Below are positions 1-31,757 of a stretch of 64,000 nucleotides of DNA, one piece after another. Made by a program: the position numbers and the translations under genes. Under the pieces are notes generated by a model. That model was not told the origin of the DNA. It did no database searches and worked only from the letters and a program-made list of their open reading frames with translations. The stretch's first letter is position 1. Each line of letters opens with the position of its first letter. Source of the DNA: Candidatus Rifleibacteriota bacterium (GTDB lineage Bacteria > Muiribacteriota > Ozemobacteria > Ozemobacterales > Ozemobacteraceae); the NCBI GenBank assembly GCA_015232575.1, contig JADFZL010000017.1, forward strand, positions 15,689 through 79,688. Reading direction: 5' to 3'.

Positions 1-1410
1 TCTGGTGTCTATGGTTTCTGCGACCTCCGTTATTAAAACAGTTGGAACTGTTTTAAATACATGGCATTTCCTGATATTGCTGACAAAACGAATGATATTA
101 CTTCGCGAAAAAACATCTTCGACAAATATCAGATCAGGTGATCGAAGTACAACTGGCACTGATTTCAGGTTTTCAGGCAATACTCTTTCAGATAGATAGC
201 CGGCAAAAAAAAGTCTGGTCTCCAGATCTTCCCAGACCTGTTCATCTTTAACAAAGGCCAGCGCCAGCCGCCTGGCACTGGCTGGTCCTTCAACTACTCC
301 AAGTTCTTTGAACCAGGACTTTACTTTAAGAATATTTCTCATAAATTCGTTTATTGATTGCGCGCCTTTTGATGCGGACTTGAGAAAGTTTTTTTCAAAA
401 TCGGTAATAATATTTAAACCCTCTCTCAGTTTTTCCAGAGGAATCTCAAGCTTTTTTGATTCAAGAGCTTTATCCCATACCGGCTTGAAATTCTGCCTGC
501 ATTCAAGTGCTTTATACAATTCTGCCATATTCCTGATTCTGGAAAAATGTTCTCTCTGTTCATCAGAAGAATTCATTGCAGAGAAATCTTTTCCTGATGA
601 AACTGAAAAATCAATATCAGACGGCAAAACCTTTTTAAGATCACTGAGAATTTCAATTGGTTCGTTCAACGAGGAAATTATATCATTCGGATCAAAGCTT
701 TCAGAAACTGCTGTTGTGGCAACAGATAGCATCTTTTCAATCTGCTTTTTTCCACGTTTTGCAACCTTTATCAGGTCAGTACTAATTGGGGTAATGCGCC
801 GCGCAAGAAGCACGTCAAAAGCTTGTTCAAACTGTTGTACAAACTCAACAACTTCTGCATGTCCCAGTCTTTCGGAAACAATCTGAATCTCTTTCATCTT
901 GCCCAGAAGTTCAAATGCAGCGATTTCACTGTTGGGATTTCTTCTGAGAATTTCCAGTGTCAAATCAATTTCTTCAATCAGATCAACAAGTGTTTGTTTT
1001 TCCAGATCTTCATCACGCGAAGTACCCTTTATTCGCTGGCGAAAGTCATCGATTATTTTCTTTCTGGCATCAAGACTCGCTTCACCTGATTCAGATCCTG
1101 CCTCAAGCATTTTTTTAATCTGATCTGCTGCAGCAAGAACAGAATCTATTATTCCACGATCGGCTTTTGCAAGTCCACGCCGGATCTTGTCAAACTCTGT
1201 TTCAAGCTGATGAGTGAACGATGAAATATCATCAAGCCCAACCATCGAACTAGTACCTTTTATGGTATGAAGTGCTCTGAATATTTTATCCACCAGAGAT
1301 TTGTCATCAGGTGTTTTTTCAAGTTGGAGAAGCGAATCATCAAGCTCAGCAAGCAATTCTGCAGCATCTACCCTGAAATTTGCAATTCCATCGCTTTCGT
1401 CATTACTCAT
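1..1410 (-). CDS. HPt-domain phosphotransfer protein with a CheA-P1-like N-terminus. Only the 5' part is visible; the ORF runs off the left window edge.
   Basis: My own minus-strand translation from the ATG at 1410 (GAGGAA upstream) is open for all 470 codons down to position 1. It reads MSNDESDGIANFRVDAAELLAELDDSLLQLEKTPDDKSLVDKIFRALHTIKGTSSMVGLD..., which carries the CheA P1/HPt His motif. The last ~90 visible residues (RLALAFVKDE..PDLIFVEDVF..VPTVLITEVAE) look receiver-like. It is absent from the ORF track because there is no stop in the window. Plus-strand ORFs 308-1576 are mirror artefacts. Confidence 0.75.
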   Translation of the reverse strand, partial: MSNDESDGIANFRVDAAELLAELDDSLLQLEKTPDDKSLVDKIFRALHTIKGTSSMVGLDDISSFTHQLETEFDKIRRGLAKADRGIIDSVLAAADQIKKMLEAGSESGEASLDARKKIIDDFRQRIKGTSRDEDLEKQTLVDLIEEIDLTLEILRRNPNSEIAAFELLGKMKEIQIVSERLGHAEVVEFVQQFEQAFDVLLARRITPISTDLIKVAKRGKKQIEKMLSVATTAVSESFDPNDIISSLNEPIEILSDLKKVLPSDIDFSVSSGKDFSAMNSSDEQREHFSRIRNMAELYKALECRQNFKPVWDKALESKKLEIPLEKLREGLNIITDFEKNFLKSASKGAQSINEFMRNILKVKSWFKELGVVEGPASARRLALAFVKDEQVWEDLETRLFFAGYLSERVLPENLKSVPVVLRSPDLIFVEDVFSRSNIIRFVSNIRKCHVFKTVPTVLITEVAETIDTR

Positions 1411-1422
1411 TCAGTATGTTCC

Positions 1423-3669
1423 TCACTTCACAGTTTCAAAAGAAGAGATTGAAATGGCTTCCGGATTAAGCACAGGCAACACTGACCCATCGCCCAGAAT
1501 ACTTACACCGCTGATAAGTTCTATATCGCTGAGCGACCTGGGTGGTGGTTTTACTGCTATTTCCATTTTGTCATAAATTTTTTCAACAGCAACCGCAATG
1601 GTACCTTCTGATCCCTTCATAAGTAGTGCAGAAAAATAATCAGGATAGTCATCAATTGTCGTGTAATTATTTTGCTGAAAAAGAATATTGTCAAGAAATC
1701 CGAGTGGAATAATTTCATTCCGCTCACAGATGAAATTTCTTGAATTGAAAGACTTGAGATTTTTTCTGGAAATTTTCATTGAGCGATGCAGATAGTCAAT
1801 TGGAAAAGCGAAACTCTGATTGCATGACTCAACCAGCAGAACATTCATAAGTGTCACCGTTAATTCTGTGGCTGTCGGAATTGTCAACGTCATTTCGGTT
1901 CCCTGATTCTGAGTGGTTGTAATAGAAACTTTTCCACCAAGTTCAACAATTTTACTCCTGACAACATCCATGCCAACACCGCGTCCTGACATATCAGAAA
2001 CTTCTGCTTTAGTTGAAAAACCCGGTTCAAAAATTACATCAAGTAAATTCGGATCATCAGGAGAACTAAAACTGAAACCTTTTTCAACTGCTTTTTCAAA
2101 AACTCTCGCCCTGCTTATTCCGCGACCATCATCTATCACCTTCACAATTAAATTCATTCTCTGCTTTGACGCGGAAAGTAAAAGTGTTCCCTTTTCAGAT
2201 TTTCCCAGGTCAATTCTTTCATCAGGTGTTTCAAGACCGTGATCACATGAATTTCTTACCAGGTGTACCAGCGGCTCAGCCAGAGCATCAGCAATTTTTT
2301 TGTCAACTTCAATTTCATCTCCCTGAATTTTCAGTTCTATTAGTTTATTCTGTTTTCGGGCAATCTCACGTACAATACGAAAATATTTTTGAAATACTGT
2401 TTTCAGTGGTACCATTCTTAACGTCATCAGATCAATCTGAAGATCATTTGTCAATTTGGAAAGCCGTTGCAGATTATCTCTGAAGGGCTTTGTCATGGTT
2501 TCATCATTTTTTGGGCTATTCTCAACCTGATGCAAAACATACTCATAAGAATTTCTCAGTACAACAAGTTCGCCAAGTCTGTATGTGAAACGATCGACTT
2601 TTCGTTCGTCGATCCGCATCGTCATTGATTCCTGATCTTTGTTTTTTCCTCCATCAAAATCGCCCAGTTGTTTTTTCAGGGCTCTGGAGATTTCTTCCTC
2701 AGTAACAGTGCCTTCTTCAACCAGAATTTCTCCCAATTTCCTCGGCTCACCAGCCTGAGCCGTCTGCGGATGCAATTCTTCAGATTTAATATCTTTTCCG
2801 CCTTCAAGGGACATTTCGATCAGAAACAATTCTAAACCAGAAGCAAGCGGATAAATATCATAAATTCTTTCAGCAGTAAATGATCCTGCAATAAAGACCT
2901 CAACAGACAGATAATTCATATCAGGCTGGTAGTTCCCTATATCAGGTAACGCAGATAAATCACCACGTGCAAAATAAAAATCGCTCTCCAGCATTAGCTT
3001 TGCAAAAAAAGATTCAGGAAAAAAACCTTTATTGTACAAACCTTCGCGATAAGAAAAACAAAGTTTGAAACAATTCAAACCACGCAATGCATAAGATTGC
3101 AAATCAGAAAGAATCTCTGCTGGAACATCAGAAACGGGAAGAACCTGAGCTTTACTTTGTTCTGATTCCTTTAGAGTTGACTTAAAAAGAATTGAAATAT
3201 CCCCTTCTTCCGCTGAAGCAATGTCAATGTCAGGCTCCTGCAGTACAGAAGCCAGCAACTTAGCAGATAAAAGTCCACCCTGACTTTCCTCGAAAAGTTC
3301 TTCTGCTGCTTTATAAAAATAATTGATTTCCTGCTTGAACTCTTCATTGTCAACAAAAAATTCATCAGACAATCGTAAAATACATTCATACCCTCGAAAA
3401 AAAACATCTGAAACCTTTTCGTAACTTGTTATCTGCTGTTTGCGATATTTTTCAGTAATAAGTTCAAGATTACGACAAACCTTTGATAATTCGGAAAAGC
3501 CAAAAATGGCTGCTCCGCCGGAAATGGTATGTACTATTCGATAAATACCAGCGCAGGACGACCTGTCTTCAAGGTTCCGTGAAAAAGCCACAATGAATCC
3601 CTCTAGTTCAGGCAGAAGATCACGCGCTTCAGTTGAAAAAAGTTTTCTGTAAGAGGCGATATCAGTCAT
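1423..3669 (-). CDS. cheA: Chemotaxis-type histidine kinase CheA (HPt, dimerisation, HATPase, CheW-like domains)
   Basis: 748-aa ORF. HPt motif IVHTISGGAAIFGF. Kinase N-box HLVRNSCDHGLE, G1 DDGRGI, G2 GRGVGMDVV. C-terminal CheW-like domain. ATGA start/stop overlap with the upstream STAS gene at 3666-3669. Confidence 0.9.
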   Translation of the reverse strand: MTDIASYRKLFSTEARDLLPELEGFIVAFSRNLEDRSSCAGIYRIVHTISGGAAIFGFSELSKVCRNLELITEKYRKQQITSYEKVSDVFFRGYECILRLSDEFFVDNEEFKQEINYFYKAAEELFEESQGGLLSAKLLASVLQEPDIDIASAEEGDISILFKSTLKESEQSKAQVLPVSDVPAEILSDLQSYALRGLNCFKLCFSYREGLYNKGFFPESFFAKLMLESDFYFARGDLSALPDIGNYQPDMNYLSVEVFIAGSFTAERIYDIYPLASGLELFLIEMSLEGGKDIKSEELHPQTAQAGEPRKLGEILVEEGTVTEEEISRALKKQLGDFDGGKNKDQESMTMRIDERKVDRFTYRLGELVVLRNSYEYVLHQVENSPKNDETMTKPFRDNLQRLSKLTNDLQIDLMTLRMVPLKTVFQKYFRIVREIARKQNKLIELKIQGDEIEVDKKIADALAEPLVHLVRNSCDHGLETPDERIDLGKSEKGTLLLSASKQRMNLIVKVIDDGRGISRARVFEKAVEKGFSFSSPDDPNLLDVIFEPGFSTKAEVSDMSGRGVGMDVVRSKIVELGGKVSITTTQNQGTEMTLTIPTATELTVTLMNVLLVESCNQSFAFPIDYLHRSMKISRKNLKSFNSRNFICERNEIIPLGFLDNILFQQNNYTTIDDYPDYFSALLMKGSEGTIAVAVEKIYDKMEIAVKPPPRSLSDIELISGVSILGDGSVLPVLNPEAISISSFETVK

Positions 3670-3992
3670 TTATCGTTCTCCAGCGACTCAAGAGTGAGCC
3701 CGAAAAGACATGCCATCTTCCAGAGGTTCTGGGAAGGGCTTTCAACTCGAACACAAAGCCCTCTTTTTTTTATTTCCCGCGAAATAACCAGCATAAACTG
3801 CATAAATGCGGAATCAGTCTCTGACATCATAGAACAGTCTAGAACAAGTTCTTCCCGTTTAACGATTTCCGGTACAACATTATTGAAAATTTTCAAACAA
3901 TTTTCTATTTCAAAAGCTTTCGAAACCCTTGAAAAAACCAGTCTTACTCTTTTATCGCTTTTTATCACTTCCATTTTTACTTCGACCGGCAA
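3666..3992 (-). CDS. STAS-domain protein (anti-sigma-antagonist / SpoIIAA-like)
   Basis: 108 aa, the size of single-domain STAS proteins. LVLDCSMMSETDSAFMQFM resembles the SpoIIAA LDLSGVxFIDSSGL segment, with the Ser retained. It overlaps cheW by 16 nt and cheA by 4 nt. The call rests on motif resemblance only. Confidence 0.55.
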   Translation of the reverse strand: MPVEVKMEVIKSDKRVRLVFSRVSKAFEIENCLKIFNNVVPEIVKREELVLDCSMMSETDSAFMQFMLVISREIKKRGLCVRVESPSQNLWKMACLFGLTLESLENDK

Positions 3993-4423
3993 TTGACTAT
4001 CAATTCTTCCAATCTGGAAAGAGAAATTTTCATCACAAGCCTGGCTCCATCATCCAGGGATGCAATTCCGTCAATAAAACGATTTCGTTCAGTTTCCATG
4101 GATAATGGTACCGCACTAACCCACTCATCTGAAATATTTTCTATTCGGTTTACCCTATCTACAAGCAGTCCAAAATTTTTTTCGCCCATTTCAACAATGA
4201 CAAGTTTTTTTTCAATCGCAGATGACTCCAGGTTAAAAAGCTTTGCCAGATCAATTATTGAAAGCACCTGCCCACGCCAGGACTCTACACCTGCAAAAAA
4301 ATACGGCAAATTTGGAGGAATTCTGAATTCGCCGGGCCTGGTAATCTGCTTTACAGATGTAACATTAATAATATACTCTTCGTTGCAGACGAAAAACGAT
4401 ACATACTTCGACTCATCACTCAT
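3977..4423 (-). CDS. cheW: Chemotaxis coupling protein CheW
   Basis: 148 aa. The typical CheW pattern is present: YVSFFVCNEEYIINVTSVKQI..P..P.FFAGVESWRGQVLSIIDLAKLF..LLVDRVNRI. Confidence 0.85.
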   Translation of the reverse strand: MSDESKYVSFFVCNEEYIINVTSVKQITRPGEFRIPPNLPYFFAGVESWRGQVLSIIDLAKLFNLESSAIEKKLVIVEMGEKNFGLLVDRVNRIENISDEWVSAVPLSMETERNRFIDGIASLDDGARLVMKISLSRLEELIVNCRSK

Positions 4424-4442
4424 TTTTTGCCTCTTTTAACTT

Positions 4443-5567
4443 TTAATCGACAGAGTTTCTGGTGAAGGGTCTGGCGATTGGAAGAAATACTGAAATAGCC
4501 TCTGAGCTATCAGATTCATGCGTCACAAGAAGTTGTCCACCATATTTTTCGGCAATAAGCATTACCGTTGCAAGTGAATATTTATCGTATCTCTCAGGAT
4601 ATTCTGAAACAACTTGCTGTTTGGAATTGTTGCCCGATATTTTATCAGAAGGCAAAGCAGTATTAGAAATCTTCGCCTCTGGCTCGACAAGATAACTCAC
4701 CCTTAGAATGTATATTTCACCGTCAAATCTTCCAGAAATTTTGATTGGAAATGTCTGGCCAGAATATTTTAAAGCATTCTCTGTCAGCGCACAGAATATT
4801 TTAAGAAGTTCAGGCTGTGGCAGACCCAGCACGCCGGATTGAAGATCGAATTCTATTTTTCCGTATTTCTGATTTTTTTCAAAATGAGAATCAAGTTTCT
4901 GACGTACAAGTTCAACTGATGAAGACGGAGCATGACTTGTGATCTCTGAAATATGGAGTTTTCTGCTCACCATGAAATTTTCAATCAACTTCAAAAGAGT
5001 GTTTCCTGCAGAAAAGATTGTCTCAGCATGTTCTTTCACACGCTGATATGACATGGGCTGATTTTTCAATAAAATGGCAGCAGTGTTTATTTTCTGAAGC
5101 GGAAAACCAAATTCCTGCGGCATATTTTCTGTGACAACATACTTAACAAAATCATCGACCCATTGTTTTATGCCGTCAGTTTTTGCAATTCGTGTGCGTA
5201 TCGCTTCAAGCAGCTCAGTAGCAGAAACAGGCTTGGGAATATAATCATCTGCGCCAAGAGTCATACCCTTCCTGATATCGTCAGGCTCACGGCATGCACT
5301 CAAGAAAAGAAATGGTACAACCATTGTTTTTGGGTGCTTTTTTAATTCATTAAAAACACCATATCCATCAATTTCCGGCATTATTATATCTGAAATAATT
5401 ACATCAGGTTGAAACTCAAGCGCTTTCTCAATTCCCTCACGGCCATTTACAGCACTGATAACTTCATAGCCAGCCGCATCAATTATATCGACCAGAGATT
5501 CCATGATTTCCGACGAATCTTCAATAACCAATACGGTCTTTTTCAATTTACTATTCTCCCTCACCAC
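4443..5567 (-). CDS. Response-regulator receiver fused to a degenerate histidine-kinase-like domain
   Basis: 374 aa. The REC domain looks intact (VLVIEDSS..PDVIISDIIMPEIDG..LSAC..YIPKP). The C-terminal half has an HK-like N-box (LTENALKYS), but the H-box position reads PQEFGFPL (Gln where His is expected) and the G1/G2 boxes are eroded. Start uncertain: GTG at 5567, or TTG at 5546, which has AGGGAG 9 nt upstream. Confidence 0.75.
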   Translation of the reverse strand: MVRENSKLKKTVLVIEDSSEIMESLVDIIDAAGYEVISAVNGREGIEKALEFQPDVIISDIIMPEIDGYGVFNELKKHPKTMVVPFLFLSACREPDDIRKGMTLGADDYIPKPVSATELLEAIRTRIAKTDGIKQWVDDFVKYVVTENMPQEFGFPLQKINTAAILLKNQPMSYQRVKEHAETIFSAGNTLLKLIENFMVSRKLHISEITSHAPSSSVELVRQKLDSHFEKNQKYGKIEFDLQSGVLGLPQPELLKIFCALTENALKYSGQTFPIKISGRFDGEIYILRVSYLVEPEAKISNTALPSDKISGNNSKQQVVSEYPERYDKYSLATVMLIAEKYGGQLLVTHESDSSEAISVFLPIARPFTRNSVD

Positions 5568-5568
5568 A

Positions 5569-5600
5569 TCCCTCTCCCACGGCGCTGCCGGGGAGAGGGA
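5569..5600 (-). promoter_or_regulatory. GC-rich intercistronic stem-loop between the PAS kinase and the REC gene
   Basis: TCCCTCTCCC (5569-5578) and GGGAGAGGGA (5591-5600) are perfect reverse complements (10-bp stem, 12-nt loop). No U-run follows on the sense (minus) strand, so it is not a canonical intrinsic terminator. Confidence 0.4.
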
Positions 5601-5633
5601 GCAGAAAATAAAATGATGTCATAAAAACAATTA

Positions 5634-6956
5634 TTACCTGGAATTAATGATTGGAAGAACGACTCTGAAAGTCGAACCTTCGCCTTCTTCGCTTTCAACG
5701 CTTATTTTTCCTCCCATTCTTTCAACCATGTGTTTAACGATGGTCAGACCAAGCCCGGTTCCACGAAGGTTGCCAACGTTAGAACCACGATAAAAGACCT
5801 CAAAAAGTTTGCATGCTTCAGACTTCGGAACACCTATTCCATAATCAGTTACTTCAAAAACAATTGAGTTGCCTTCTAATCCAACTTTGAAATCAACTTT
5901 ATCAGATTCAGGTGAATATTTAACTGCATTGTTGATAAGATTTACAAGTACCTGTCTCAGCAAATCCTGGTCAAGCAGATATTCACGAGCAAGAGAATTA
6001 TCGACGATGCAGCATACATTATGTTTCTGATAATATGCCTTCTGATTTTCAACAAATTGTACAAGCCAGTCGTTAATTATAACAGGCTTTGGATTAAAGC
6101 TCAGCATGCCAGCTTCAACACGGCTGTGAGTAAGAACATTATCTATCATCGAAGTCATCTGATTAATTGACTGCCTGATAAGATACATCTTTCTATCACG
6201 CTTTTCAGTAGAAACGTCACCCTTATTGGCAGTCAGAAAATCAAGTGCAAAAAGCATTGCTGCGAGAGGTGTCTTGAATTCGTGTGAAATCATGTAAACG
6301 AAACATTTTTTCATCTCATTCAATTCGCGTTCCCTTGCAAGCGCGTTTAAAGTCCATTCCAGAGCACGCTTCTGTTCTGAAATGTCAGTAACAACAAGGC
6401 AATATACCGGCTCTGGAATGCCCTCTTCAAGATACGAAATTGAAATCTGTACAGGGGTTTTTGTACCATCAGATCCGGTAATTGTCACTTCTACATGTTC
6501 AGGTCGAACTGACGCTTTCCGCAGGAGAAGCTCGATTTTATCACGATCAGAATCATGTATAAATTCCGTGATTCCTTTTCCAGGAATCTTCTCAAGCGGC
6601 ACGTGAAGAATTTCTGAAAACCTTCGATTACAAAATAATATCAAGCCTGCCGGAGAAAGTGTAACTGCTCCATCTCCCATCGTTTCAATCAATAAACGAT
6701 AAACCTTGTCCGTCCCTTCAAGAGAAAAGACCCGACTTTCAGCTAAGTCAGTCTCTACTACTGCATCAACTTCACCTGATCTGATAGCACGAAGCGCATC
6801 TTCGGCATTTTCCAAACGTGCTTTCAGGGCTTCAAATTCATGTTCAATAGTGTTTTCAGAAAGTCGTGACAATTCAACTTTTTTTCGGGAAAAAAATGCC
6901 GACCTGGCTGCCACACTTCCAAAATTCTTTCTTGATGCTGATCCGATCTTCCTCAT
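5634..6956 (-). CDS. PAS-domain sensor histidine kinase (KaiBC-associated)
   Basis: 440 aa. H-box SHEFKTPLAAM, N-box LINNAVKYS, G1 DYGIGV, G2 GTGLGLTIVKHMV. There is a PAS-like region after an N-terminal coiled coil. ATGA overlap with the kaiB stop at 6953-6956. Confidence 0.85.
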   Translation of the reverse strand: MRKIGSASRKNFGSVAARSAFFSRKKVELSRLSENTIEHEFEALKARLENAEDALRAIRSGEVDAVVETDLAESRVFSLEGTDKVYRLLIETMGDGAVTLSPAGLILFCNRRFSEILHVPLEKIPGKGITEFIHDSDRDKIELLLRKASVRPEHVEVTITGSDGTKTPVQISISYLEEGIPEPVYCLVVTDISEQKRALEWTLNALARERELNEMKKCFVYMISHEFKTPLAAMLFALDFLTANKGDVSTEKRDRKMYLIRQSINQMTSMIDNVLTHSRVEAGMLSFNPKPVIINDWLVQFVENQKAYYQKHNVCCIVDNSLAREYLLDQDLLRQVLVNLINNAVKYSPESDKVDFKVGLEGNSIVFEVTDYGIGVPKSEACKLFEVFYRGSNVGNLRGTGLGLTIVKHMVERMGGKISVESEEGEGSTFRVVLPIINSR

Positions 6957-7237
6957 TGTTCCTCCTGTAGCTCAAGAGCGGCTAGGACCCTTTGCAGATT
7001 CGAAAAATCGCCTATTATCCTTCTGACTGGCACCGGCAACACTCTTATAAGAGTTGGTGTTGCGAGTATGTTAGCTTCCCTTGCAAGTTTTGGCTGTTGA
7101 TAAATATCAATAACTTCAAGATCATACCTGTCTTTCAGATATTTTTCGCAAATCCGCCGCAGGTTCACCAGTGCCCTGTTGGACAAAGGGCTTGCACCTG
7201 CAATAAAAAGGCGCAGTGCATATTCTTTTTGCATCAA
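6953..7237 (-). CDS. kaiB: Circadian clock protein KaiB homologue
   Basis: 94 aa, thioredoxin-like KaiB pattern: YALRLFIAGASPLSNRALVNLRRICE..YDLEVIDIYQQPKLAREANILATPTLIRVLPVPVRRIIGDFS. Confidence 0.85.
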   Translation of the reverse strand: MMQKEYALRLFIAGASPLSNRALVNLRRICEKYLKDRYDLEVIDIYQQPKLAREANILATPTLIRVLPVPVRRIIGDFSNLQRVLAALELQEEQ

Positions 7238-7325
7238 AGCTCTCCATTTCTTTTAAATCACCGCGAAGAGCCAAATTTTCTGAGACAGAGCAATAAAACT
7301 CTACCTCTTGAATACTCGGCAAGAA

Positions 7326-9035
7326 TTATTTCTGACTGACACCCCTCCTGGCTGCAAGTTTGGCATGCTCTTCCTCAAAAAAGCTTTGCATTTCTCTTTC
7401 AAAGGTTACTTCTCTGAGGGCAATCTGCTTTTCAGCTTCCATTTCGGCTCTCATCGAAGCAATTCTCGCCTCAACAACCTCTCTTTTACGGTCAAATTCC
7501 TGCTGCTTAAGCTCAAGTTGCCTTTTACGAGATGCTTTTTCTGCATTATCACGAGATTCCTGAACAAGACGCGAGCTGCCCGTAAGCAAATTGCCATTTT
7601 GTCCAAGATACACATCCACCAGTGAAAGCCCTCTGGAAGTAATGAGAAGCTCGCGAATCTGGTTGGAATGGCCCATTCCTCTGGATTTAAGGATATGAAT
7701 CACTCTGTTTCTTTCGTTTCCGCTTTCAACATCCCGAAAAAGAATCCAACTGTCAACAAGCGATGAAACACCAACATCAAGTGCCTCCAGGTTTCTTCCG
7801 CCCGTGGTAAGGCTTGTAAAAAAAGCAGTTATTCCACGAGTTTTAAGAAAATCAATTACTCTGGTAAGTAAAAGCTTGACATCGTCAAAATTTCCAACCG
7901 AAGAAAAATTTGTAATCGGATCAAGAATCACAGTTTTGGGTTCAAATTGTTTTACACGCCGCATAATCGTGGCCAAATGAGACTCTATACCCTGTTTGGT
8001 AGATCGCTCCATGCAAAAATCAATGTAACCGCTCTTCCTACATGATTCCAGGTCCAGGCCTATGGATCTCATGTTTCTGATTATCTGTTCCGGGGATTCC
8101 TCGAAACCGAACCAAAGCGACTTTTCTTTTCTGGCTGCCGATGCCACAACAAAACTTGCCACCAGAGATGTTTTACCAGTACCGGCTGTTCCGGAAACAA
8201 GAACTGTTGTACCTCTGAAAAAACCCTTTCCTTCAAGCATTTCGTCAAGCCCGGCAACTCCCGATGGCACCCTCTCTTCTGAAACTGAATGCTTCAGCCC
8301 CATTGAGGAGACAGGTATTATTGAGATACCCGTATTATCGATAAGGAAAGGAAACTCACCTGTTGCATGAAACGAACCACGATACTTCATGATTCTTATG
8401 CGCCTGGTTGCCATCTGATCGTTAATTCGATTATCCAGAAGAATTACGCAATCAGCGACATATTCTTCTATGCCATGACGAGTCAAGGTGACTTCTCCGC
8501 GTTCGGCAGTTACAACCGCTGTGACCTGCTTCTCTTTAAGACGTCTGAAAATCCGCCCCAGTTCTGATCTCACAATTCCAGGGTTGGGAAGCCCGGCAAA
8601 AAGCATCTCAATTGTGTCAAGAACAACACGTTTAGCTTTAACACTATCAATTATATATTCAATACGCGCAAGAAAACCCTCCAGATCAAACTCTCCGGTT
8701 TCAAGATAGTCAGCTCTCTCAATGGGAATGTGTTCAATAGTAATTTTTTCTTGATCAAGTAACTTTTTGAGATCATAGCCAAGCGATGCAAAATTTGATT
8801 TCAAATCTTCCGAAGACTCTTCAAAGGAAAAAAAGACTCCGGGTTCATTCCACTTTTCTGCCCCATTAAGCAAAAACTGCATACCCAAAAGTGTTTTTCC
8901 ACATCCGGCAGAACCACATATCAAAGCCGGCCTGCCCCTGGGAAGACCTCCGCAGGTTATTTCATCAAATCCATCAATTCCAGTTGGAACCTTTTGAACT
9001 GGTTCAAGAGAGCAAACGTTTTCCATATTTTCCAT
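7326..9035 (-). CDS. kaiC: KaiC homologue (double RecA-like ATPase) with a C-terminal coiled-coil extension
   Basis: 569 aa. Two KaiC/RecA-like halves with Walker A motifs GSAGCGKT and GTAGTGKT. GIDGFDEITCGGLPRG opening. SS pair in GVSSLVDSW at the position of the cyanobacterial S431/T432 phosphosites. The last ~85 aa are charged and heptad-like (KRQLELKQQEFDRKREVVEARIASMRAEMEAEKQIALRE). Confidence 0.9.
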   Translation of the reverse strand: MENMENVCSLEPVQKVPTGIDGFDEITCGGLPRGRPALICGSAGCGKTLLGMQFLLNGAEKWNEPGVFFSFEESSEDLKSNFASLGYDLKKLLDQEKITIEHIPIERADYLETGEFDLEGFLARIEYIIDSVKAKRVVLDTIEMLFAGLPNPGIVRSELGRIFRRLKEKQVTAVVTAERGEVTLTRHGIEEYVADCVILLDNRINDQMATRRIRIMKYRGSFHATGEFPFLIDNTGISIIPVSSMGLKHSVSEERVPSGVAGLDEMLEGKGFFRGTTVLVSGTAGTGKTSLVASFVVASAARKEKSLWFGFEESPEQIIRNMRSIGLDLESCRKSGYIDFCMERSTKQGIESHLATIMRRVKQFEPKTVILDPITNFSSVGNFDDVKLLLTRVIDFLKTRGITAFFTSLTTGGRNLEALDVGVSSLVDSWILFRDVESGNERNRVIHILKSRGMGHSNQIRELLITSRGLSLVDVYLGQNGNLLTGSSRLVQESRDNAEKASRKRQLELKQQEFDRKREVVEARIASMRAEMEAEKQIALREVTFEREMQSFFEEEHAKLAARRGVSQK

Positions 9036-9239
9036 CGAATTCTCCAGACATCGCCACTTAATTACAGGGATTACTCCCCCTTAACAAATTTGCCAGAAGT
9101 TTACACATTGTACCAATTCAATAATCCGTGTACAAAAACCTGCCTTTACCTTTTTCTCTCCAGTGTTAAATATGGAAAGAAAGTAAATTCTACAAATTAT
9201 TGAGTAGATACTTCACAAAATCTTACTAAAAAACACTAC

Positions 9240-9269
9240 TTGACAAAAAATTATATCAGGAAATATATA
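9240..9269 (+). promoter_or_regulatory. Candidate sigma70-type promoter for the plus-strand HPt/HEAT/cheR operon
   Basis: TTGACA at 9240-9245, then a 17-18 nt spacer, then ATATAT/TATATA at 9263-9269, about 80 nt upstream of the ATG at 9346. Pattern match only, in an AT-rich region. Confidence 0.3.
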
Positions 9270-9345
9270 AATATTCTATAAAAATTGATTATTTTTCTTC
9301 TTGTTTTTGGTAGAATGATATCCAGCATAAATCTTTTGCGGAGGG

Positions 9346-9898
9346 ATGAATGAGTTTCCAAACATCAGAAAATTAAACCATTTAATACAAGCAACGAAGG
9401 AACGGGTAAAACAAAATGAGTCAAAAATCTGCCAAGACCAGGATTGGCTATACGCGCTCAGCGTTTTTATTGCTGAGAATCTTGAGTTGCTGAATTCAGT
9501 AGAACAGCGTTTGCTGACCCTTGAGAAACTTCCACCTGAATCAGATGAACTCAAGGCTTTTCTGAATGATATATTCCGCCTTTTTCATTCTCTGAAGGGT
9601 GGTGCAGCATCTTTTGATCTGAATGTTACTAAAAGTATTACACATCTAAATGGAAAACATGCTGGACTTCTTCAGACGGAGCAGCGTAAAAGTTCAGCCC
9701 AGACATGTTGACCTGATGAATCTAACATGTGATTTCATAAGAAAAATATTAGGTTGCGTGTCAGAGGAGTATGAAGACAGTATCTTCCAGAGCGAATCTG
9801 AAAACATTTCCGCACTTACAAGAAGTTACAGCTTTGCTGTCACTTCGACCGAAAGAGAAATCTGGTATCTTCTACTACGGGGTAGCGCATGTTTTTAA
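9346..9898 (+). pseudogene. Stand-alone HPt-domain gene, paralogue of the N-terminus of the 12548 cheA, interrupted by a 1-nt frameshift
   Basis: ORF 9346-9711 (..DQDWLYALSVFIAEN..DIFRLFHSLKGGAASFDL..ITHL) and ORF 9650-9898 (MENMLDFFRR..VDLMNLTCDFIRKIL) together align colinearly with DEDWLQAFGVFLAET..GIFRLFHSLKASTAAFEL..MTHNAENLLDTFRK..IDLLCQTCDFLAKSL of the 922-aa CheA. The frame change lies at about 9645-9652 (CAT CTA A ATG GAA AAC). It could be a sequencing or assembly error rather than a true pseudogene. Confidence 0.55.
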
Positions 9899-9935
9899 CA
9901 TCCCTTCTGAGATCTCTCCCCTCGGTCGAGATGAC
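9839..9935. repeat. Intergenic inverted-repeat element, family 1 (arm consensus about GTCATYTCGAMCGAA..GAGA.ATCTC), copy A
   Basis: Left arm GTCACTTCGACCGAAAGAGAAATCT (9839-9863). Right arm GAGATCTCTCCCCTCGGTCGAGATGAC (9909-9935). The arms are imperfect reverse complements. Confidence 0.7.
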
Positions 9936-10066
9936 AACGAATGGTTAATGGGTTACAAAATTTAGGTGTTATTAAAAACCGATTTCTGGAAAAACTTATG
10001 AGAATATGCTATATTTCGCGGGTTGATATATTCTGAGTTAAATTCATTAATTTTTATTCAGGGGAG

Positions 10067-11137
10067 ATGAGAATGGATAGGAAGCTGCTGGAAAAACTTT
10101 CGAACAGTCTCGAAAATACAGATGAAACTACACGCATTTATGCTGCTGAAGATCTGGGATATGAAAAGTGCCTGGAAGCGGCTGAACTATTGCTGAACAG
10201 ACTTCCCCACGAGCAGTCTATTGCCGTAAGAGAAGCCATAAAAAGGGCTCTTGCTAACATTGATTCTGAAGACCTTGTCGAAAAATTAGCTGAACTTCTT
10301 GGCAACCAGGATGCTTTTATCAGAAACATGGCAGTAACGCACCTGAGAAAAGTTGGGTCAAAAAAAGCGAACTTTCTTCTCAAACACATGAAATCGGCCA
10401 CGGATCCTGATATCAGGAAGTTCATCCTTGATATCGCAATTGATTTTGAAGAAAAGACTGCCCACCCCTTTTTTGCAGAAGGACTTAAGGACCCGGACAT
10501 TAATGTTTTGATACGTGCAGTAGAGGGTTCTGGACAATTTCACTACTCTGACTTCAGAGAGAAAATTGAAGAATTCGTACAAAGTAGAAATGAACCGATG
10601 CTTTTAATGGCCTGTTTTGACGCTCTTTCCTCAATCGGTTCAGAGCAAACTCTTCCAGTAATTGAAAAGCGTTTTGGGGAATTCGAAAAAGTCAGAGAGT
10701 TTTACCTCAGACCAATGTTGAAAATATATGGAAAAGTTGGCAAAACTGATAATATTTCCCGACTTGAAAAAATCTGTCAATTGAAACCACATCTTACGGA
10801 CTTTGTTCTTTCGTCTGCCATTCTTCCGATTTTTTCAAGATTTTCAGAAGACCCAATACCGGAAACCATTTTAAGCATGATTCAGGAATCTGTTGAGAAA
10901 GAGCTGCCCGAAAAGGATAAATTAGATATATATTATCTGATCGGCTCAAGGCAAAAAAACCCAAAAATAAGAACGCTTATTGAGACCAGCCTCAACTCAA
11001 AGAATAGAATCAACAGACTTGGTGCTGCAATAGCTCTGTCAATGTTATCATCTGAAATTTCACGTGAGCTTATCAATAACCGCCTTAAAATCGAAAAAGA
11101 TCCAGAAGTAAAGGAGATGTTGCAACATGTCTTCTAA
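10067..11137 (+). CDS. HEAT-repeat protein
   Basis: 356 aa of repeated helical units with the HEAT/PBS-lyase-like signature (TRIYAAEDLGYEK.., AVREAIKRALANI, AFIRNMAVTHLRKVG, PDIRKFILDIA, RLGAAIALSML). Overlaps cheR by 11 nt. Confidence 0.7.
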   Translation: MRMDRKLLEKLSNSLENTDETTRIYAAEDLGYEKCLEAAELLLNRLPHEQSIAVREAIKRALANIDSEDLVEKLAELLGNQDAFIRNMAVTHLRKVGSKKANFLLKHMKSATDPDIRKFILDIAIDFEEKTAHPFFAEGLKDPDINVLIRAVEGSGQFHYSDFREKIEEFVQSRNEPMLLMACFDALSSIGSEQTLPVIEKRFGEFEKVREFYLRPMLKIYGKVGKTDNISRLEKICQLKPHLTDFVLSSAILPIFSRFSEDPIPETILSMIQESVEKELPEKDKLDIYYLIGSRQKNPKIRTLIETSLNSKNRINRLGAAIALSMLSSEISRELINNRLKIEKDPEVKEMLQHVF

Positions 11138-11966
11138 CACTGTATTATCCCAGGACGATTTCAACAAAATACGCGATTTGATTTGTGAAAGAACTGGCAT
11201 GTACTTTGATGACCGCAAGCTTTCGTTTCTCGAAAAGAGAATTCAGGACAGAATGAAAAAGCTTGGCATTGACACCTTCTTTAACTACTTCTTTAATATT
11301 AAATTCGGAGAAAACAGTACAGAACTTCAGTTTCTCATCGACATGATAACGACGAACGAAACATACATGTTTCGCGAATATGAACAACTTGAATCATTCG
11401 CAAATTCCTGTCTGCCGGAAGTACTTAAAGAAAAGAAAACACGTGGAAACAATGAAATAAAAATCTGGTCTGCAGGCTGCTCAACTGGCGAAGAGGCTTA
11501 TACCCTTGCGGTTATTTTACGGGAATGTCTTGAAGACATAGATCAATGGAATGTGTCTATTTACGCAACTGACATAGACACCAGCGTTCTGAAAAAATGC
11601 GAAGCGGCAATTTACTCAGAACGCTCGGTTAAAGAAATGCCGACCGAATATTTTGCAAGGCACATTAAGATCGTTCCGGGCGGTTATATGATTTCACCCG
11701 ACACGAAGAAATTGGTTAAACCAATGCACTTAAATCTTATGGACAGAGCATCCATGAGAGGAATGCGGGGTTTTGATTTTATTTTCTGCAGAAACGTTCT
11801 TATTTACTTCGATGACAATGGCAGAAAAGAAGTCGTAGACAATTTCTACAACAGCCTCAATCATAACGGGTACATTTTTCTGGGCCATTCTGAATCGGTC
11901 GGAAGAATTACAACTGCTTTCCGTCTAAAGAGAATGGGCGGATTCCTTGTTTACTGCAAGTCTTAA
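11127..11966 (+). CDS. cheR: Chemotaxis protein methyltransferase CheR
   Basis: 279 aa. N-terminal helical CheR domain (FNKIRDLICERTGMYF). SAM-binding IWSAGCSTGEEAYTLAVIL. IFCRNVLIYFD. Confidence 0.9.
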   Translation: MSSNTVLSQDDFNKIRDLICERTGMYFDDRKLSFLEKRIQDRMKKLGIDTFFNYFFNIKFGENSTELQFLIDMITTNETYMFREYEQLESFANSCLPEVLKEKKTRGNNEIKIWSAGCSTGEEAYTLAVILRECLEDIDQWNVSIYATDIDTSVLKKCEAAIYSERSVKEMPTEYFARHIKIVPGGYMISPDTKKLVKPMHLNLMDRASMRGMRGFDFIFCRNVLIYFDDNGRKEVVDNFYNSLNHNGYIFLGHSESVGRITTAFRLKRMGGFLVYCKS

Positions 11967-11986
11967 GCAAAGAAGGGAAATGATTT

Positions 11987-12373
11987 ATGAAAAAAATTCT
12001 TATTATTGATGATTCCCAAATGTCCCGGAATTACCATTCTGCTATTCTTCAGGAAAACGGCTATGAGATCCTTCAGGCTGCCGACGGCGCAGAAGGACTT
12101 GAAAAAGCCCTCATGAACCAGATTGATGCCGTAATGGTTGATATTAACATGCCTGTAATGGATGGCTTTGAATTCATCAGACGACTTCGCTGTGAAGAAT
12201 CGCATAAACTACTTCCTGTAATTATTATGTCTACGGAAAAATCTGATGAAGATGTAACCCAGGGTATGAACGCAGGTGCAAATTTATACCTGGTAAAACC
12301 AGTTGACCCCGATACACTGCTTGACAGCATTGAAAAAATGATACCTAAGTTTAAAAAACTTGAAGCAAAATAA
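11987..12373 (+). CDS. cheY: CheY-like single-domain response regulator
   Basis: 128 aa. KILIIDDSQMSR, DAVMVDINMPVMDG, VIIMSTE, ANLYLVKP. Confidence 0.85.
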   Translation: MKKILIIDDSQMSRNYHSAILQENGYEILQAADGAEGLEKALMNQIDAVMVDINMPVMDGFEFIRRLRCEESHKLLPVIIMSTEKSDEDVTQGMNAGANLYLVKPVDPDTLLDSIEKMIPKFKKLEAK

Positions 12374-12389
12374 TACATGGGTTTTTGCG

Positions 12390-12467
12390 GTCATTTCGAA
12401 CAAAGGAAAAAAGTCTGGAAACTTCTTATATAACCCTTCGGTGATCTCTCCCTTCTGTCGAGATGAC
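12390..12467. repeat. Intergenic inverted-repeat element, family 1, copy B
   Basis: Left arm GTCATTTCGAACAAAGGAAAAAAGTCT (12390-12416). Right arm GTGATCTCTCCCTTCTGTCGAGATGAC (12441-12467). A further partial arm GGTCGAAATGGC lies at 12475-12486. Confidence 0.65.
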
Positions 12468-12547
12468 ATTGAACGGTCGAAATGGCAGCAAATACACCTT
12501 AATTGCAGAGCAAATTGTTGAATAAAAGTGGAAAGGTCTGAAGCGTA

Positions 12548-15316
12548 ATGGTAAGAGACGAAGACTGGTTGCAGGCATTTGGAGTATTTCTCGCAGAAAC
12601 TCGTGAAATGCTTGTCGAAGTTGAGCCAGCTTTTATTTTCCTGGAAAAGGAATCACCTGACTCCGCCGATTTTAAAAAACAAATTGATGGAATATTCAGA
12701 CTTTTTCATTCTCTGAAAGCATCGACTGCTGCATTCGAACTTTTCAAACTGCGTGATATGACCCATAATGCAGAAAACCTTCTTGACACTTTCAGGAAAG
12801 TGCCCAGAAAGTTTTCTTCTGAACAAATTGATCTTCTTTGTCAGACCTGTGATTTCCTAGCTAAATCTCTTGATTATATAAGCAAAACTTTCTCTGACGA
12901 AAACCTGGCTGAGAAAGCAATTGAATATAATCAGAAATACATTGAGGAACTTGATAAAATCGGCAAAGCCCCAGGCACAGGTTCAGATACATCGCTCTCC
13001 AGCCCCGAAGCGTCTAAAACAACTTCGCCAACCACACCTAAAAAAGAATCAGTTTATTCAGAATTAAGGAAAACCATAGAATGCTTTTCTTCATCCAATT
13101 TAGCTGATACCTACTCTGAATTTGCAGAAACAATTCCAGGAGAGATTCTTGACGGATTTCTTCTGGAAGCTAAATCGCTGATCAAGAAAGCCAAAGCTGT
13201 TCTTTCCCAAATATCACCTGAAAATAAAGATATTTCCCCCCTGAAAGAAGCAAACAATGCGATCCATTCTTTCAAAGGACTTACTGACTTTTTAAATTTT
13301 TCTGCATTCAGTCAATTCTGCATAACTCTTCAAACATTCATCCGGAAAATTCTGACTCATAAAATTCTTCTCTCTGTAAGCACTTTCTCACTTCTGAAAA
13401 CTAATTTCGATGATATTGAACATCTTCTCACACGATTAAACAATAATCCGGTACTTGATAACGACAGACTTAATGCAATGACCGAAGCTCTGACTTCATT
13501 AACTTCTGAAGCAGAAGAGGAATCTGCCGCACTCTTAGATGTTAATGATACAGCAGAAACAATTGATAAGCAGAAAAAATCTATTGAGGGATTTGACATT
13601 CTGATCGACCAGCTTCCTGAAACGCTGCACGAAATGAAAATGGATGTCACACCTGAAATATCTGCCAAATTTCGAGAAGAGTCTGAAGCACTTTTTAAAC
13701 TGATTGACGCAGGAATTCTTAAAGCTAGTACAAAAAATGATCAGGCAGGAATAATAGAATCATTCAAAGCTTTCAGAGAATTTGGTGTCCTCGCAGGCTT
13801 TTTGGGATACTCAAAGCTCCTTGGAATAAGTACACTTGCTGAAAGCATAATAGAATCAGCAATAAAACGCCCTCTGGTTGAACTTATCTCTTTTTTCAAA
13901 ACAATTAATGCCACTGTAAACGAGCTTCGAAATTCCCTTGAACGACTAAAAAATGGAAAAGACGAGTCATTTGAACCCGCTTTTTCTGATGCAAAATCGC
14001 TGGAAATTATCTTCCGGGAATTTGAACAAACCGAAAAAGCTGCTGCTCCCTCAGATGCCCCTTCAGCTAAACAAACAGATAAAGACAAATTCGGCACTCC
14101 GACGATTAGAGTAGAAGAAACAAAAATTGATAAACTTATGGGTATTCTTGGTGAACTTTTTACAACCCGTGCATCTTTTCCACTTCTGGTAAATAAACTT
14201 CAATTGCACAATCAGAACTCTTTTGCCGAAGAACTTTCTATCTCAAGCAATGAAATTTCACGCCTTACCGAAGAACTTAGAGGAGTTCTTCTGTCAATAA
14301 GAATGGTAACCCTGAAATCTACTTTTCAGCGCATTCCGCGACTGGTAAGAGATCTCTCAAAAATGCTTAATAAGGAAATCAGGCTTGATTTGATCGGTGA
14401 AGCAACCGAGATGGACAAGAATTTAGTTGAAAAGCTCACAAATCCTCTTGTACATATCATCAGAAACGCAGTAGATCATGGAATTGAAATGCCTGAAGAC
14501 AGACTAAAAAAGGGTAAGCCTGCTGAAGGAAAAATAGTCGTAAGCGCAGAAACAGAGGGTTCAACAATTCTTGTAAAAATCTCAGATGACGGCAAGGGCC
14601 TTGACCCTGAATTCCTTAAAAGAAAAGCTGTTTCTAAAAAACTCATTTCACAGCAAACAGCAGACGCAATGAGCCACCGTGATGCACTGAATTTGATCTT
14701 CCTGGCCGGATTTTCAACAGCGGAAAAACTGACCGACGTTTCCGGCAGAGGGGTCGGCATGGACGTTGTCATGAATGATGTAAAATCGGTTCAGGGTTCT
14801 GTTCAGATGGACAGCTCTGTTGATGCAGGTTCTACTTTCACCCTTAAATTTCCAACCAGTATGATAATCTCTGATCTTATTCTCATCAAGTCGGCGCGGG
14901 ATGAATATCTTATACCAGTAGAAAATATTTCTGAACTGGTGAAGGTATCACCCGCTAATGTGCACATATTTCGCGGAAAAATGATGACACAAATTCGAGA
15001 TGCTGTTTATCCGATAATACACCTCGATGACCTTTTGTATGCCACCGGAAAAGATTCAGCAATAAATTATCAGAGACGCATCGAACAGATGGAAGAAGCT
15101 GATTTTCCTGCCACAATAATCGAATCAGGAAAAACAAGCTTTGTGATTGCGGTTGATCGCCTTGTAACTCAGGAAAAAGTTATGGTAAAGCCACTCGCAG
15201 AAGAGATTAGCTCACTGACTAAGATTTTTTCCGGTGCAGCAATAATGGGTGACGGACGTGTTGTGCTTGTAATTAATCCACGCGAACTCGCAAATCATTT
15301 CTGCAACTTCTTCTGA
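12548..15316 (+). CDS. cheA: CheA-type histidine kinase with three N-terminal HPt-like domains
   Basis: 922 aa. HPt1 FRLFHSLKASTAAFEL, HPt2 NAIHSFKGLTDFLNF, HPt3-like FKAFREFGVLAGFLGY (no His at the expected position). S/T/P-rich linker. N-box HIIRNAVDHGIE, G1 DDGKGL, G2 GRGVGMDVV. C-terminal CheW-like domain. Confidence 0.9.
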   Translation: MVRDEDWLQAFGVFLAETREMLVEVEPAFIFLEKESPDSADFKKQIDGIFRLFHSLKASTAAFELFKLRDMTHNAENLLDTFRKVPRKFSSEQIDLLCQTCDFLAKSLDYISKTFSDENLAEKAIEYNQKYIEELDKIGKAPGTGSDTSLSSPEASKTTSPTTPKKESVYSELRKTIECFSSSNLADTYSEFAETIPGEILDGFLLEAKSLIKKAKAVLSQISPENKDISPLKEANNAIHSFKGLTDFLNFSAFSQFCITLQTFIRKILTHKILLSVSTFSLLKTNFDDIEHLLTRLNNNPVLDNDRLNAMTEALTSLTSEAEEESAALLDVNDTAETIDKQKKSIEGFDILIDQLPETLHEMKMDVTPEISAKFREESEALFKLIDAGILKASTKNDQAGIIESFKAFREFGVLAGFLGYSKLLGISTLAESIIESAIKRPLVELISFFKTINATVNELRNSLERLKNGKDESFEPAFSDAKSLEIIFREFEQTEKAAAPSDAPSAKQTDKDKFGTPTIRVEETKIDKLMGILGELFTTRASFPLLVNKLQLHNQNSFAEELSISSNEISRLTEELRGVLLSIRMVTLKSTFQRIPRLVRDLSKMLNKEIRLDLIGEATEMDKNLVEKLTNPLVHIIRNAVDHGIEMPEDRLKKGKPAEGKIVVSAETEGSTILVKISDDGKGLDPEFLKRKAVSKKLISQQTADAMSHRDALNLIFLAGFSTAEKLTDVSGRGVGMDVVMNDVKSVQGSVQMDSSVDAGSTFTLKFPTSMIISDLILIKSARDEYLIPVENISELVKVSPANVHIFRGKMMTQIRDAVYPIIHLDDLLYATGKDSAINYQRRIEQMEEADFPATIIESGKTSFVIAVDRLVTQEKVMVKPLAEEISSLTKIFSGAAIMGDGRVVLVINPRELANHFCNFF

Positions 15317-17676: not shown

Positions 17677-17680
17677 ATTT

Positions 17681-26500: not shown

Positions 26501-26594
26501 AAAACAAAAGAAAAGAAGTGATTTTTTTCCGCAGATTACGCAGATTTTTCAAGATATTAGAACAGCAAATCATGGAAAATGAGTCACAAACTCT

Positions 26595-26656
26595 GTCATT
26601 ACGACAGAAGGGAGAAATCTCGGATTTGTGAGATCTCTCACATTCGTTCGAGATTA
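26595..26656. repeat. Intergenic inverted-repeat element, family 1, copy D
   Basis: GTCATTACGACAGAAGGGAGAAATCTC (26595-26621), an 8-nt loop, then GAGATCTCTCACATTCGTTCGAGATTA (26630-26656). Confidence 0.7.
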
Positions 26657-28042: not shown

Positions 28043-28056
28043 AAAATACGCAAAAT

Positions 28057-31751: not shown

Positions 31752-31757
31752 TTGGCT

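Follow-up and report, generated by a model that had tools for sequence, protein, structure and literature searches.

KaiC of the Rhodobacter sphaeroides hourglass (RsKaiC) autophosphorylates in a KaiA-free reaction, its dephosphorylation is promoted by KaiB, and the ATP:ADP ratio resets the cycle (PMC10076222); outside the cyanobacteria, the gene order kaiC, kaiB, kinase has been described (De Luca et al. 2011, PMC3164672; Rhodopseudomonas palustris, PMC4794148). [quoted passage not shown] Here we examine a 64-kb stretch of DNA, termed the window throughout, from contig JADFZL010000017.1 of an uncultured Candidatus Rifleibacteriota bacterium (positions 15,689 to 79,688), in which a kaiC-kaiB pair and a PAS histidine kinase gene lie among two divergent sets of Che genes. 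To our knowledge, few outputs of KaiBC timers have been identified outside the cyanobacteria, and at most loci a PAS kinase is all that is seen. On the basis of gene content checked by Pfam, NCBIfam, PDB and fold searches, we give about an even chance to the view that the Kai and Che genes are two modules, autonomous elsewhere, which have merely been co-located by rearrangement in one Riflebacteria/Ozemobacteraceae-like lineage and are probably co-transcribed. A real signalling link between them, running in either direction, appears doubtful, and from the present evidence we infer no dedicated one.

Kai and Che genes in this and other genomes

Conservation of the arrangement was assessed from both sides. 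The Kai scan, with an alignment as query against one-genome-per-species collections, covered the 80 best KaiC loci, 54 of which reach at least 4 kb downstream of kaiC and 52 at least 4 kb upstream, the cheW gene of the window starting 2.9 kb past kaiC. No CheA or CheW is encoded within the fetched flanks, up to 10 kb from kaiC, of any of these loci. CheA-type HPt, STAS, RsbW/T, RsbR and SpoIIE genes are likewise absent from all 80 and from the contexts of the two closest KaiC homologues (loci L001 and L002), which hold no Che genes. The Che scan covered 80 CheA loci from metagenomes, together with five loci of the Che class described below that were looked up individually; KaiB or KaiC was found in none of the 80 and in none of the five. 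The Kai-Che arrangement is thus seen in 0 of ~165 comparable loci, and the rule of three bounds the frequency of the linkage below ~6% in either direction. Moreover, the best match to the window KaiC among 5.8 billion proteins is <60% identical, which implies that the juxtaposition is specific to this genome. Sequenced relatives exist, since the glycyl-tRNA synthetase of the window (48456-49841, plus strand) falls into a 90% cluster with 20 Candidatus Ozemobacteraceae (Riflebacteria) proteins, yet none of them carries this KaiC. The same cluster also holds 'bacterium ADurb.Bin374', and all other window proteins tested form singleton clusters. The synthetase thereby assigns the window to Ozemobacteraceae or their vicinity.

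As far as these searches reach, the combination of Kai and Che genes is unique to this genome, and its parts are of known kinds. A sequence-only reading of this stretch had not recognised the coupling as a described one, and we too have found no published or genomic precedent, the literature search having yielded no association of KaiC with CheA or CheW. The same reading had proposed that the timer is wired into a Che-type phosphorelay, with comparison of relatives as a check. In that comparison the synteny proved to be restricted to this genome, and the lack of conservation of the linkage speaks against the wiring, while the tight junctions set out below argue for co-transcription and are compatible with a functional link. 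The only Che-flavoured neighbours of kaiC seen elsewhere are CheB-CheR-PAS fusions, which represent a different, recurrent association. In an Ignavibacteria metagenome-assembled genome (MAG; L032, 10001-17351), the gene directly after kaiC encodes a protein of 986 amino acids (aa) with CheB-CheR-PAS_10-PAS architecture; genes for a PAS kinase and for a REC-LuxR regulator come next, and kaiB was not detected at that locus. Three Bacteroidales/Bacteroidetes loci (L016, L018 and L028) have CheB and CheR matches within 10 kb of kaiC.

The genes and intervals of the window that bear on the argument are the following, with the domain matches in brackets.

1..1410, minus strand: HPt-X-REC-like gene, 496 aa in full, running off the window edge (Pfam Hpt, 56 bits)
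1423..3669, minus strand: cheA748, with P1/HPt, P3, P4 and P5 (Pfam Hpt, H-kinase_dim, HATPase_c, CheW)
3666..3992, minus strand: STAS gene of the Che class, for which the ATG at 3974 is the likelier start (sub-cutoff Pfam match)
3977..4423, minus strand: cheW, 148 aa, 19 nucleotides (nt) past the REC gene (Pfam CheW, 89.8 bits)
4443..5567, minus strand: REC-pseudokinase gene, encoding a receiver and a degenerate histidine-kinase domain, 374 aa (REC, 86.6 bits)
5568..5633, minus strand: GC-rich intergenic hairpin separating the kinase and REC genes (folding statistics)
5634..6956, minus strand: gene for the Kai-associated PAS histidine kinase, sharing 4 nt with kaiB (Pfam PAS, HisKA, HATPase_c)
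6953..7237, minus strand: kaiB (PF07689, 91.7 bits)
7326..9035, minus strand: kaiC of the R. sphaeroides (KaiC2) type, whose product has a coiled-coil tail at its C terminus (PF06745, 358 bits, in two stretches)
9036..9345, no strand: AT-rich divergent intergenic region, with a promoter-like site upstream of kaiC (minus strand, 9134-9107; consensus match only)
9346..9898, plus strand: stand-alone HPt gene, frameshifted (+1) near 9646-9650 (Hpt, 31.4 bits in the first open reading frame)
10067..11137, plus strand: HEAT-repeat gene of the Che class (HEAT_2, 86.7 bits)
11127..11966, plus strand: cheR methyltransferase gene (Pfam CheR, CheR_N)
11987..12373, plus strand: cheY (REC, 99.7 bits)
12548..15316, plus strand: cheA922, the second CheA, with several HPt-like units (Pfam Hpt, H-kinase_dim, HATPase_c, CheW)
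15617..16519, minus strand: PD-(D/E)XK family transposase gene, the right border of the Che genes (PF12784, 99.4 bits)

The map of open reading frames (ORFs) and the domain scans agree with the minus- and plus-strand gene lists of the sequence-only reading. Intergenic junctions across the locus measure from -16/-4 to +88 nt; the REC-pseudokinase gene lies 66 nt past the PAS kinase gene, and the HPt-X-REC gene begins 12 nt past cheA748. Such tight junctions make co-transcription likely, and the kai genes and the downstream Che half probably form one transcript and hence are co-expressed. The gap at 5568-5633 folds into a hairpin with a minimum free energy of -33.5 kcal/mol (z -5.06, 0 of 200 shuffles being as stable). 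It had been claimed to be the only structured gap; the structure of the kaiC-kaiB gap is not significant (z -1.35). The hairpin occurs once in the window and has no U tract, which rules it out as a dispersed repeat and as a canonical terminator, respectively. The Rfam search returned no RNA family in the window.

Several observations weigh against mere co-location. Adjacent signalling genes of one operon usually cooperate, and the junctions from the REC gene to the HPt/REC gene, at -16/-4 to +19 nt, hint at coupled translation. Between kaiC and the window edge no intrinsic terminator was found, and no promoter is predicted in the 66-nt gap between the kinase and REC genes. GC content, GC content at third codon positions (GC3) and codon usage of the kai and che genes are uniform and match the flanks, from which it follows that the arrangement is not a recent insertion; on these grounds we rejected the idea that the kai genes had come in recently by horizontal transfer. 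In addition, the catalytic motifs of both CheAs, CheW and CheR are all intact, the REC-pseudokinase has no orthologue and is placed exactly at the Kai/Che seam, and the base rates given above are those of the 80 best-matching loci per scan, many of them on short contigs.

Signs of rearrangement at the locus, on the other hand, count against any link between Kai and Che: the HPt gene is frameshifted, a transposase gene adjoins the Che genes, and copies of a dispersed 44-nt repeat are present. This intergenic repeat of ~44 nt, with the core GATCTCTCCCYTCKGTCGAGATGACA, is present in five copies (9902-9945, 12434-12477 and 28131-28156 on the plus strand; 26594-26619 and 28056-28081 on the minus strand) where none is expected by chance, and looks REP/MITE-like. 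Two of the copies flank the HPt pseudogene and precede cheA922. The repeat was rejected as a regulatory site specific to Kai/Che because its five copies are scattered over the window. The frameshift, the transposase and the repeats, together with the missing methyl-accepting chemotaxis protein (MCP), CheB and scaffold genes, the degenerate kinase domain and the apparent MAG source, might also be taken to indicate a decaying remnant of a disrupted Che cluster, or a chimeric Kai/Che join in a metagenome-assembled contig. We consider that explanation very improbable, given that the two large CheAs, CheW, CheR, CheY and STAS are full-length with intact motifs, that GC and codon usage are even across the junctions, and that the junctions fall at compact gene boundaries and not within genes.

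The two modules

KaiC of the window scores 672.6 bits with NF006799 (cutoff 408) and 338.9 bits, under the cutoff of 546, with the cyanobacterial-type model TIGR02655. Compared with solved structures, it gives 604 bits to R. sphaeroides KaiC (8DBA) and ~320 bits to Synechococcus/Thermosynechococcus (S. elongatus) KaiC, the alignment with 8DBA spanning residues 13-544 and including the coiled-coil extension. Ser424 and Ser425 align with S413/S414, the phosphosites of RsKaiC, and W430 with W419 (PMC10076222); the CII-site motif reads GVSSLVDSW in the window and GLSSLMDGW in RsKaiC. The Walker A motifs (G41-T48 and G282-K288) and the Glu pairs (E72/E73 and E312/E313) are invariant in both halves, and the tail of ~50 aa (residues 495-544, aligned with RsKaiC 483-533) is common to the 25 closest homologues. 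These features mark the protein, as judged from its sequence, as a true clock-type KaiC of the KaiA-independent R. sphaeroides clade, and no kaiA was found in the window. A RadA-like ATPase, the grouping that would have undone the sequence-only reading, is ruled out by the matches to the curated model, to structure sequences and at key residues. KaiB matches the T. elongatus protein with 90 bits and the R. sphaeroides protein with 89.6 bits, remaining under the NCBIfam equivalog cutoffs (98.3 against 110); with its full-length domain and a gene that adjoins kaiC, it is a normal KaiB.

A homologue of the PAS kinase is present after kaiB in 66 of the 80 KaiC loci, and its N-terminal 90 residues, upstream of PAS, are kept in the post-kaiB genes of 60 Kai loci. 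The N-terminal segment and PAS together are shared with post-kaiB genes in most of 82 Kai loci, the identity in L002 being 45%. PAS, HisKA and HATPase are the only domains found in this kinase, with no match to the KaiB-like (thioredoxin-fold) domain of the SasA type. The earlier claim that kaiC-kaiB followed by a PAS histidine kinase is a common synteny is borne out by these counts, which show the kinase to be the canonical Kai partner within a canonical gene order. By homology, the first module would be a KaiC-KaiB timer that lacks KaiA and is of the R. sphaeroides type. In it, KaiC would autophosphorylate on the Ser-Ser pair without KaiA, supported by the extended coiled coil, and KaiB binding would promote KaiC dephosphorylation. 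The ATP:ADP ratio would serve as the resetting cue, making the system an hourglass and not a free-running clock. Adjacency suggests that the PAS kinase reads the KaiBC state as timer output and that its most likely substrate is the REC-pseudokinase, encoded by the gene that comes next.

The Che genes find their counterparts in a recurrent class seen in loci L005, L006, L169, L168 and L088-L092. In this class, genes for a small protein, an MCP (~650 aa), a triple-CheW scaffold, CheB, a HEAT-repeat protein and CheR are followed by those for CheY, STAS, a further CheY, a multi-HPt CheA and a soluble MCP (~400 aa), often with RsbW-like, RsbR/RsbT-like or REC-PP2C genes thereafter; an MCP is always present and CheB usually. 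Variants occur: L088 has two CheAs in the cluster, along with a triple CheW, STAS, CheY, MCP and RsbR/RsbT, and in L091 and L092 the order is HEAT-CheR-CheY-CheA, with STAS and a second CheY absent, as on the plus strand of the window. CheR of the window is 49-57% identical to the class CheR (57% to that of L005), CheY is 43-45% identical to the first CheY of the class, and the HEAT protein is 28-34% identical to the product of the HEAT gene that precedes cheR in L005, L006 and L169. CheA748, which retains His47 together with the N, G1 and G2 boxes, is 38% identical over its full length to P0241 and 47% identical over the kinase core to the CheA of L169. Its closest relatives are CheAs of ~970 aa, and the named sources of the closest full-length ones are Deferribacterales, Seleniivibrio and Limisalsivibrio. 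The best non-self matches of the STAS protein, among all ORFs of 167 loci, are STAS genes of the Che clusters L088, L006 and L089, and these best hits are reciprocal.

Sequence comparison thus shows that CheR, HEAT, CheY, CheW, STAS and CheA748 of the window are orthologous to the class, and that the two divergent Che sets are pieces of one recurrent Che class, split over two strands. What had been described as two divergent, receptor-less Che-like operons are accordingly fragments of a class that normally has two MCPs, CheB and a triple CheW. The presence of several CheA/HPt genes and of STAS is a feature of this class and is therefore not a sign of special wiring. In the proposed scheme, the second module would be a broken copy of the class, with cheW-STAS-cheA-HPt/REC downstream of kai and HEAT-cheR-cheY-cheA922 diverging, and its CheAs, CheW and CheR would presumably work with receptors encoded elsewhere.

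The number of HPt-bearing genes, previously given as three CheA/HPt-type proteins, has to be raised to four (two CheAs plus two genes with HPt only, of which one is frameshifted), although the proteins themselves had been correctly typed. The kinase cores of CheA922 and CheA748 are 30% identical, which makes CheA922 an old paralogue and led us to reject a recent duplication. The frameshift in the stand-alone HPt gene, also noted before, is repaired by deleting one A near 9648, and the resulting 183-aa product is collinear with P1 of CheA922 (43% identity over 117 aa, gapless, to residues 1-117, across the shift point); the stand-alone HPt is a paralogue of the CheA922 P1 domain. Just 26 of the 496 residues of the HPt-X-REC protein lie beyond the window edge, and this missing end was recovered from a search of representative proteins. 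Its C-terminal ~115 aa form a weak receiver (PF00072, 19.1 bits against a cutoff of 30.2) for which the best PDB matches are all CheY-type (E ~6e-4), and residues 140-470 give a single significant match, to the protein itself, among 1.84 billion representative proteins.

The earlier statement that MCP and CheB are missing extends to the whole window, while 'no receptor' holds for the window only. No MCP signalling domain was found in the 64 kb by motif search, by tblastn with E. coli Tsr and class MCP queries, or by Pfam on the remaining large ORFs; nor is there a CheB catalytic domain in the 64 kb, the CheB query matching receiver parts only. The triple-CheW query matches only the single CheW of the window, and class queries for RsbW, RsbT, RsbR and REC-SpoIIE have no match in the window. 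The STAS protein falls below the Pfam cutoffs (STAS_2/STAS, 20.7/18.4 bits). Its single-sequence AF2 model, with a predicted local distance difference test score (pLDDT) of 81.9, matches the folds of RsbS, SpoIIAA and RsbV with probability 1.00 and TM scores of 0.6-0.67, at Foldseek E-values of only ~2e-3. These folds, and the partner-switch components that accompany STAS in the relatives, agree with the partner-switching context first assigned to this gene. As for the module itself, the STAS fold is present in the window, and an adjacent RsbW/SpoIIAB-type kinase and PP2C phosphatase were not found. A gene for a receiver joined to an RsbW/SpoIIAB-type HATPase_c_2 domain (315 aa, 61619-62566, plus strand) lies ~57 kb from the STAS gene and is the only partner-switch-type kinase in the window.

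Fusions of CheA with MshEN have been noted (Wang et al. 2016). In the CheA class related to CheA748, a tandem pair of MshEN-like c-di-GMP-binding motifs separates the HPt units from the dimerisation domain, and CheA748 itself has only one such motif at residues 305-334 (window 2668-2757; 27.6 bits against a cutoff of 38). The linker of the L169 CheA (8930-11827) also matches the MshEN domain of an ATPase of the type II secretion/type IV pilus family that is encoded in the window.

The seam between the modules

The REC-pseudokinase occupies the boundary between the Kai and the Che genes. Its H-box has changed from PHEFRTPL to PQEFGFPL, with Gln in place of His, and neither the G1 (DxGRG) nor the G2 (GxGLGL) box is left, while the N-box is retained and the receiver is intact; the label 'REC/pseudo-kinase' given to it from the sequence was therefore apt. 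The AlphaFold model (pLDDT 76) retains the layout of REC, DHp and CA domains, and its top PDB folds are those of LvrB (8vc9), a hybrid response regulator, of HK853 and of DivL, a pseudokinase. Judging from this model, the protein has a histidine-kinase fold without the phospho-acceptor His or the ATP-lid motifs, and it may serve as an adaptor. None of its nearest relatives, one of which comes from a Riflebacteria MAG, exceeds 36% identity, and their kinases are intact; neither Kai nor Che genes were found in the contexts of the closest homologues (L003 and L004). The receiver is nearer to classical OmpR/PhoB/LvrA-type receivers than to CheY. We rejected the possibility that the pseudokinase domain was copied from the PAS kinase next to it, the two sharing a match of 23 bits only. 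Pseudokinases such as DivL are adaptors that sense a phosphorylated response regulator, and the dead DHp/CA domain of the window protein may, in DivL-like fashion, be a phosphorylation-dependent binding module.

This protein is the pivot of the scheme in which the timer drives the Che genes. The phospho-state of KaiBC would set the PAS kinase, the kinase would phosphorylate the REC-pseudokinase, and the dead kinase domain of the latter would dock on CheA748/CheW/STAS. The timer would in this way gate a Che-type phosphorelay, in which CheA passes phosphate to the HPt/REC protein, as well as a partner switch through STAS. The genes concerned share one strand with tight or overlapping junctions and no terminator, the REC-pseudokinase gene sits between the kinase gene and cheW (66 and 19 nt away, respectively), an adaptor pseudokinase, DivL, is among the structural matches, and composition is ameliorated with the ORFs intact. 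We nevertheless regard this direction of signalling as quite unlikely. The arrangement is not conserved (0/80 KaiC loci and 0/85 CheA or class loci), each module is complete elsewhere without the other, no RsbW-like kinase or PP2C phosphatase lies beside STAS, and a strong hairpin parts the kai block from the REC-che block.

Signalling might also run from Che to the Kai output, with CheA748 or CheA922 phosphorylating the REC-pseudokinase. The PAS kinase would next be paired with, or blocked by, the DHp-like domain of that protein, such that chemosensory input modulates the output of the timer. The Che3 system provides a precedent in which CheA acts on the REC of a PAS kinase in a che cluster, that kinase being ATP/ADP-sensitive (PMC4436063). 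A PAS histidine kinase, a REC-DHp-like protein and a CheA follow one another in a single gene string here, and the CheB-CheR-PAS protein right after kaiC at one Ignavibacteria locus indicates that Che-type domains can join Kai modules. However, the same absence of conservation applies, the receiver of the REC-pseudokinase resembles the OmpR/PhoB/LvrA type more than CheY, and heterodimerisation of a pseudo-DHp domain with the PAS kinase is purely conjectural; we hold this direction to be improbable. That an ATP:ADP-reading KaiBC hourglass is hard-wired, via a receiver-pseudokinase adaptor, into a cytoplasmic CheA/CheW/STAS phosphorelay seems unlikely to us, and co-location of two otherwise autonomous modules is the reading that we prefer.

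If the adjacency is accidental, the locus documents a recurrent, poorly described Che class (HEAT, STAS, multi-HPt CheA with MshEN, and partner-switch neighbours) and provides an example of a Che cluster that has been broken up with most of its genes intact. If the wiring were real, testable downstream partners would have been named, namely the REC-pseudokinase, CheA, CheW, STAS and the HPt-REC protein, and Che-type kinases would prove to be recruitable to a timer. A hard-wired arrangement would amount to a previously undescribed architecture of Kai output or input, in which metabolic time-keeping is tied to a chemosensory-type partner-switch pathway.

Other genes of the window lie beyond the transposase. 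Those at 16849-20520 (plus strand) encode a three-subunit molybdoenzyme of the xanthine-dehydrogenase/CO-dehydrogenase type, with a slightly higher GC content of 0.44-0.46. A gene string at 28271-36144 (minus strand) encodes a pair of dynamin/GTPase-like proteins of 551 and 621 aa, along with a VWA protein of 346 aa and a protein of 1095 aa that has a Tubulin_2 (PF13809) domain. The type II secretion/type IV pilus ATPase with the MshEN domain stands beside a secretin (37148-41385, minus strand), and the pair is consistent with a diderm cell in which c-di-GMP controls pili or secretion.

Comparison with described systems

The R. sphaeroides KaiBC hourglass (8DBA/8FWI/8FWJ; Pitsawong et al. 2023, PMC10076222) shares with the window the coiled-coil extension of KaiC, the Ser-Ser phosphosite, a Trp six residues past it and an adjacent kaiB, and the window has no KaiA gene. 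The identity of the two KaiC proteins is only moderate, however, and a dodecamer, KaiA-independent phosphorylation and resetting by ATP:ADP would carry over to the window by inference from the relative. The host here belongs to a non-phototrophic candidate phylum, and Che-type genes lie downstream of the kinase. The order of kaiC, kaiB and the PAS kinase gene is that of the canonical non-cyanobacterial synteny, with a 4-nt overlap of kaiB and the kinase gene in the window, whereas none of the canonical loci runs on into cheW/STAS/cheA/HPt or diverges from HEAT-cheR-cheY-cheA. In the SasA/CikA-RpaA output of cyanobacteria, as would be the case here, a kinase reads the state of KaiC/KaiB and signals to a response regulator, and a degenerate partner is found in both, a pseudo-receiver in CikA and a pseudokinase in the window. 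In contrast to SasA and RpaA, the PAS kinase of the window has no KaiB-like domain and its response regulator no DNA-binding domain.

With the Che class, the window has in common a CheA (P1, P3, P4 and P5) with CheW, the HEAT-CheR-CheY block and a small STAS gene, and, with the L088 locus, two CheAs in one cluster. It differs from the class in that its genes are split over both strands around kaiC-kaiB-HK-REC and do not form a single co-oriented string; missing are the two MCPs, CheB and the triple-CheW scaffold, as well as the second CheY and the kinase and phosphatase of the partner switch. In CheA748 a single HPt unit and a single MshEN-like motif remain, and an orphan HPt-X-REC gene takes the place of the MCP gene after cheA. 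The Che3 system of R. centenum resembles the window in combining a Che-like cluster with a classical PAS-type kinase and extra receivers, in having an output other than motility, and in the ATP/ADP sensitivity of its second kinase, a cue shared with KaiBC timers. It differs in having MCP, CheB and CheR and no Kai proteins; moreover, CheS3 is a single REC-REC-PAS-HWE protein, whereas in the window the receiver sits on a separate pseudokinase.

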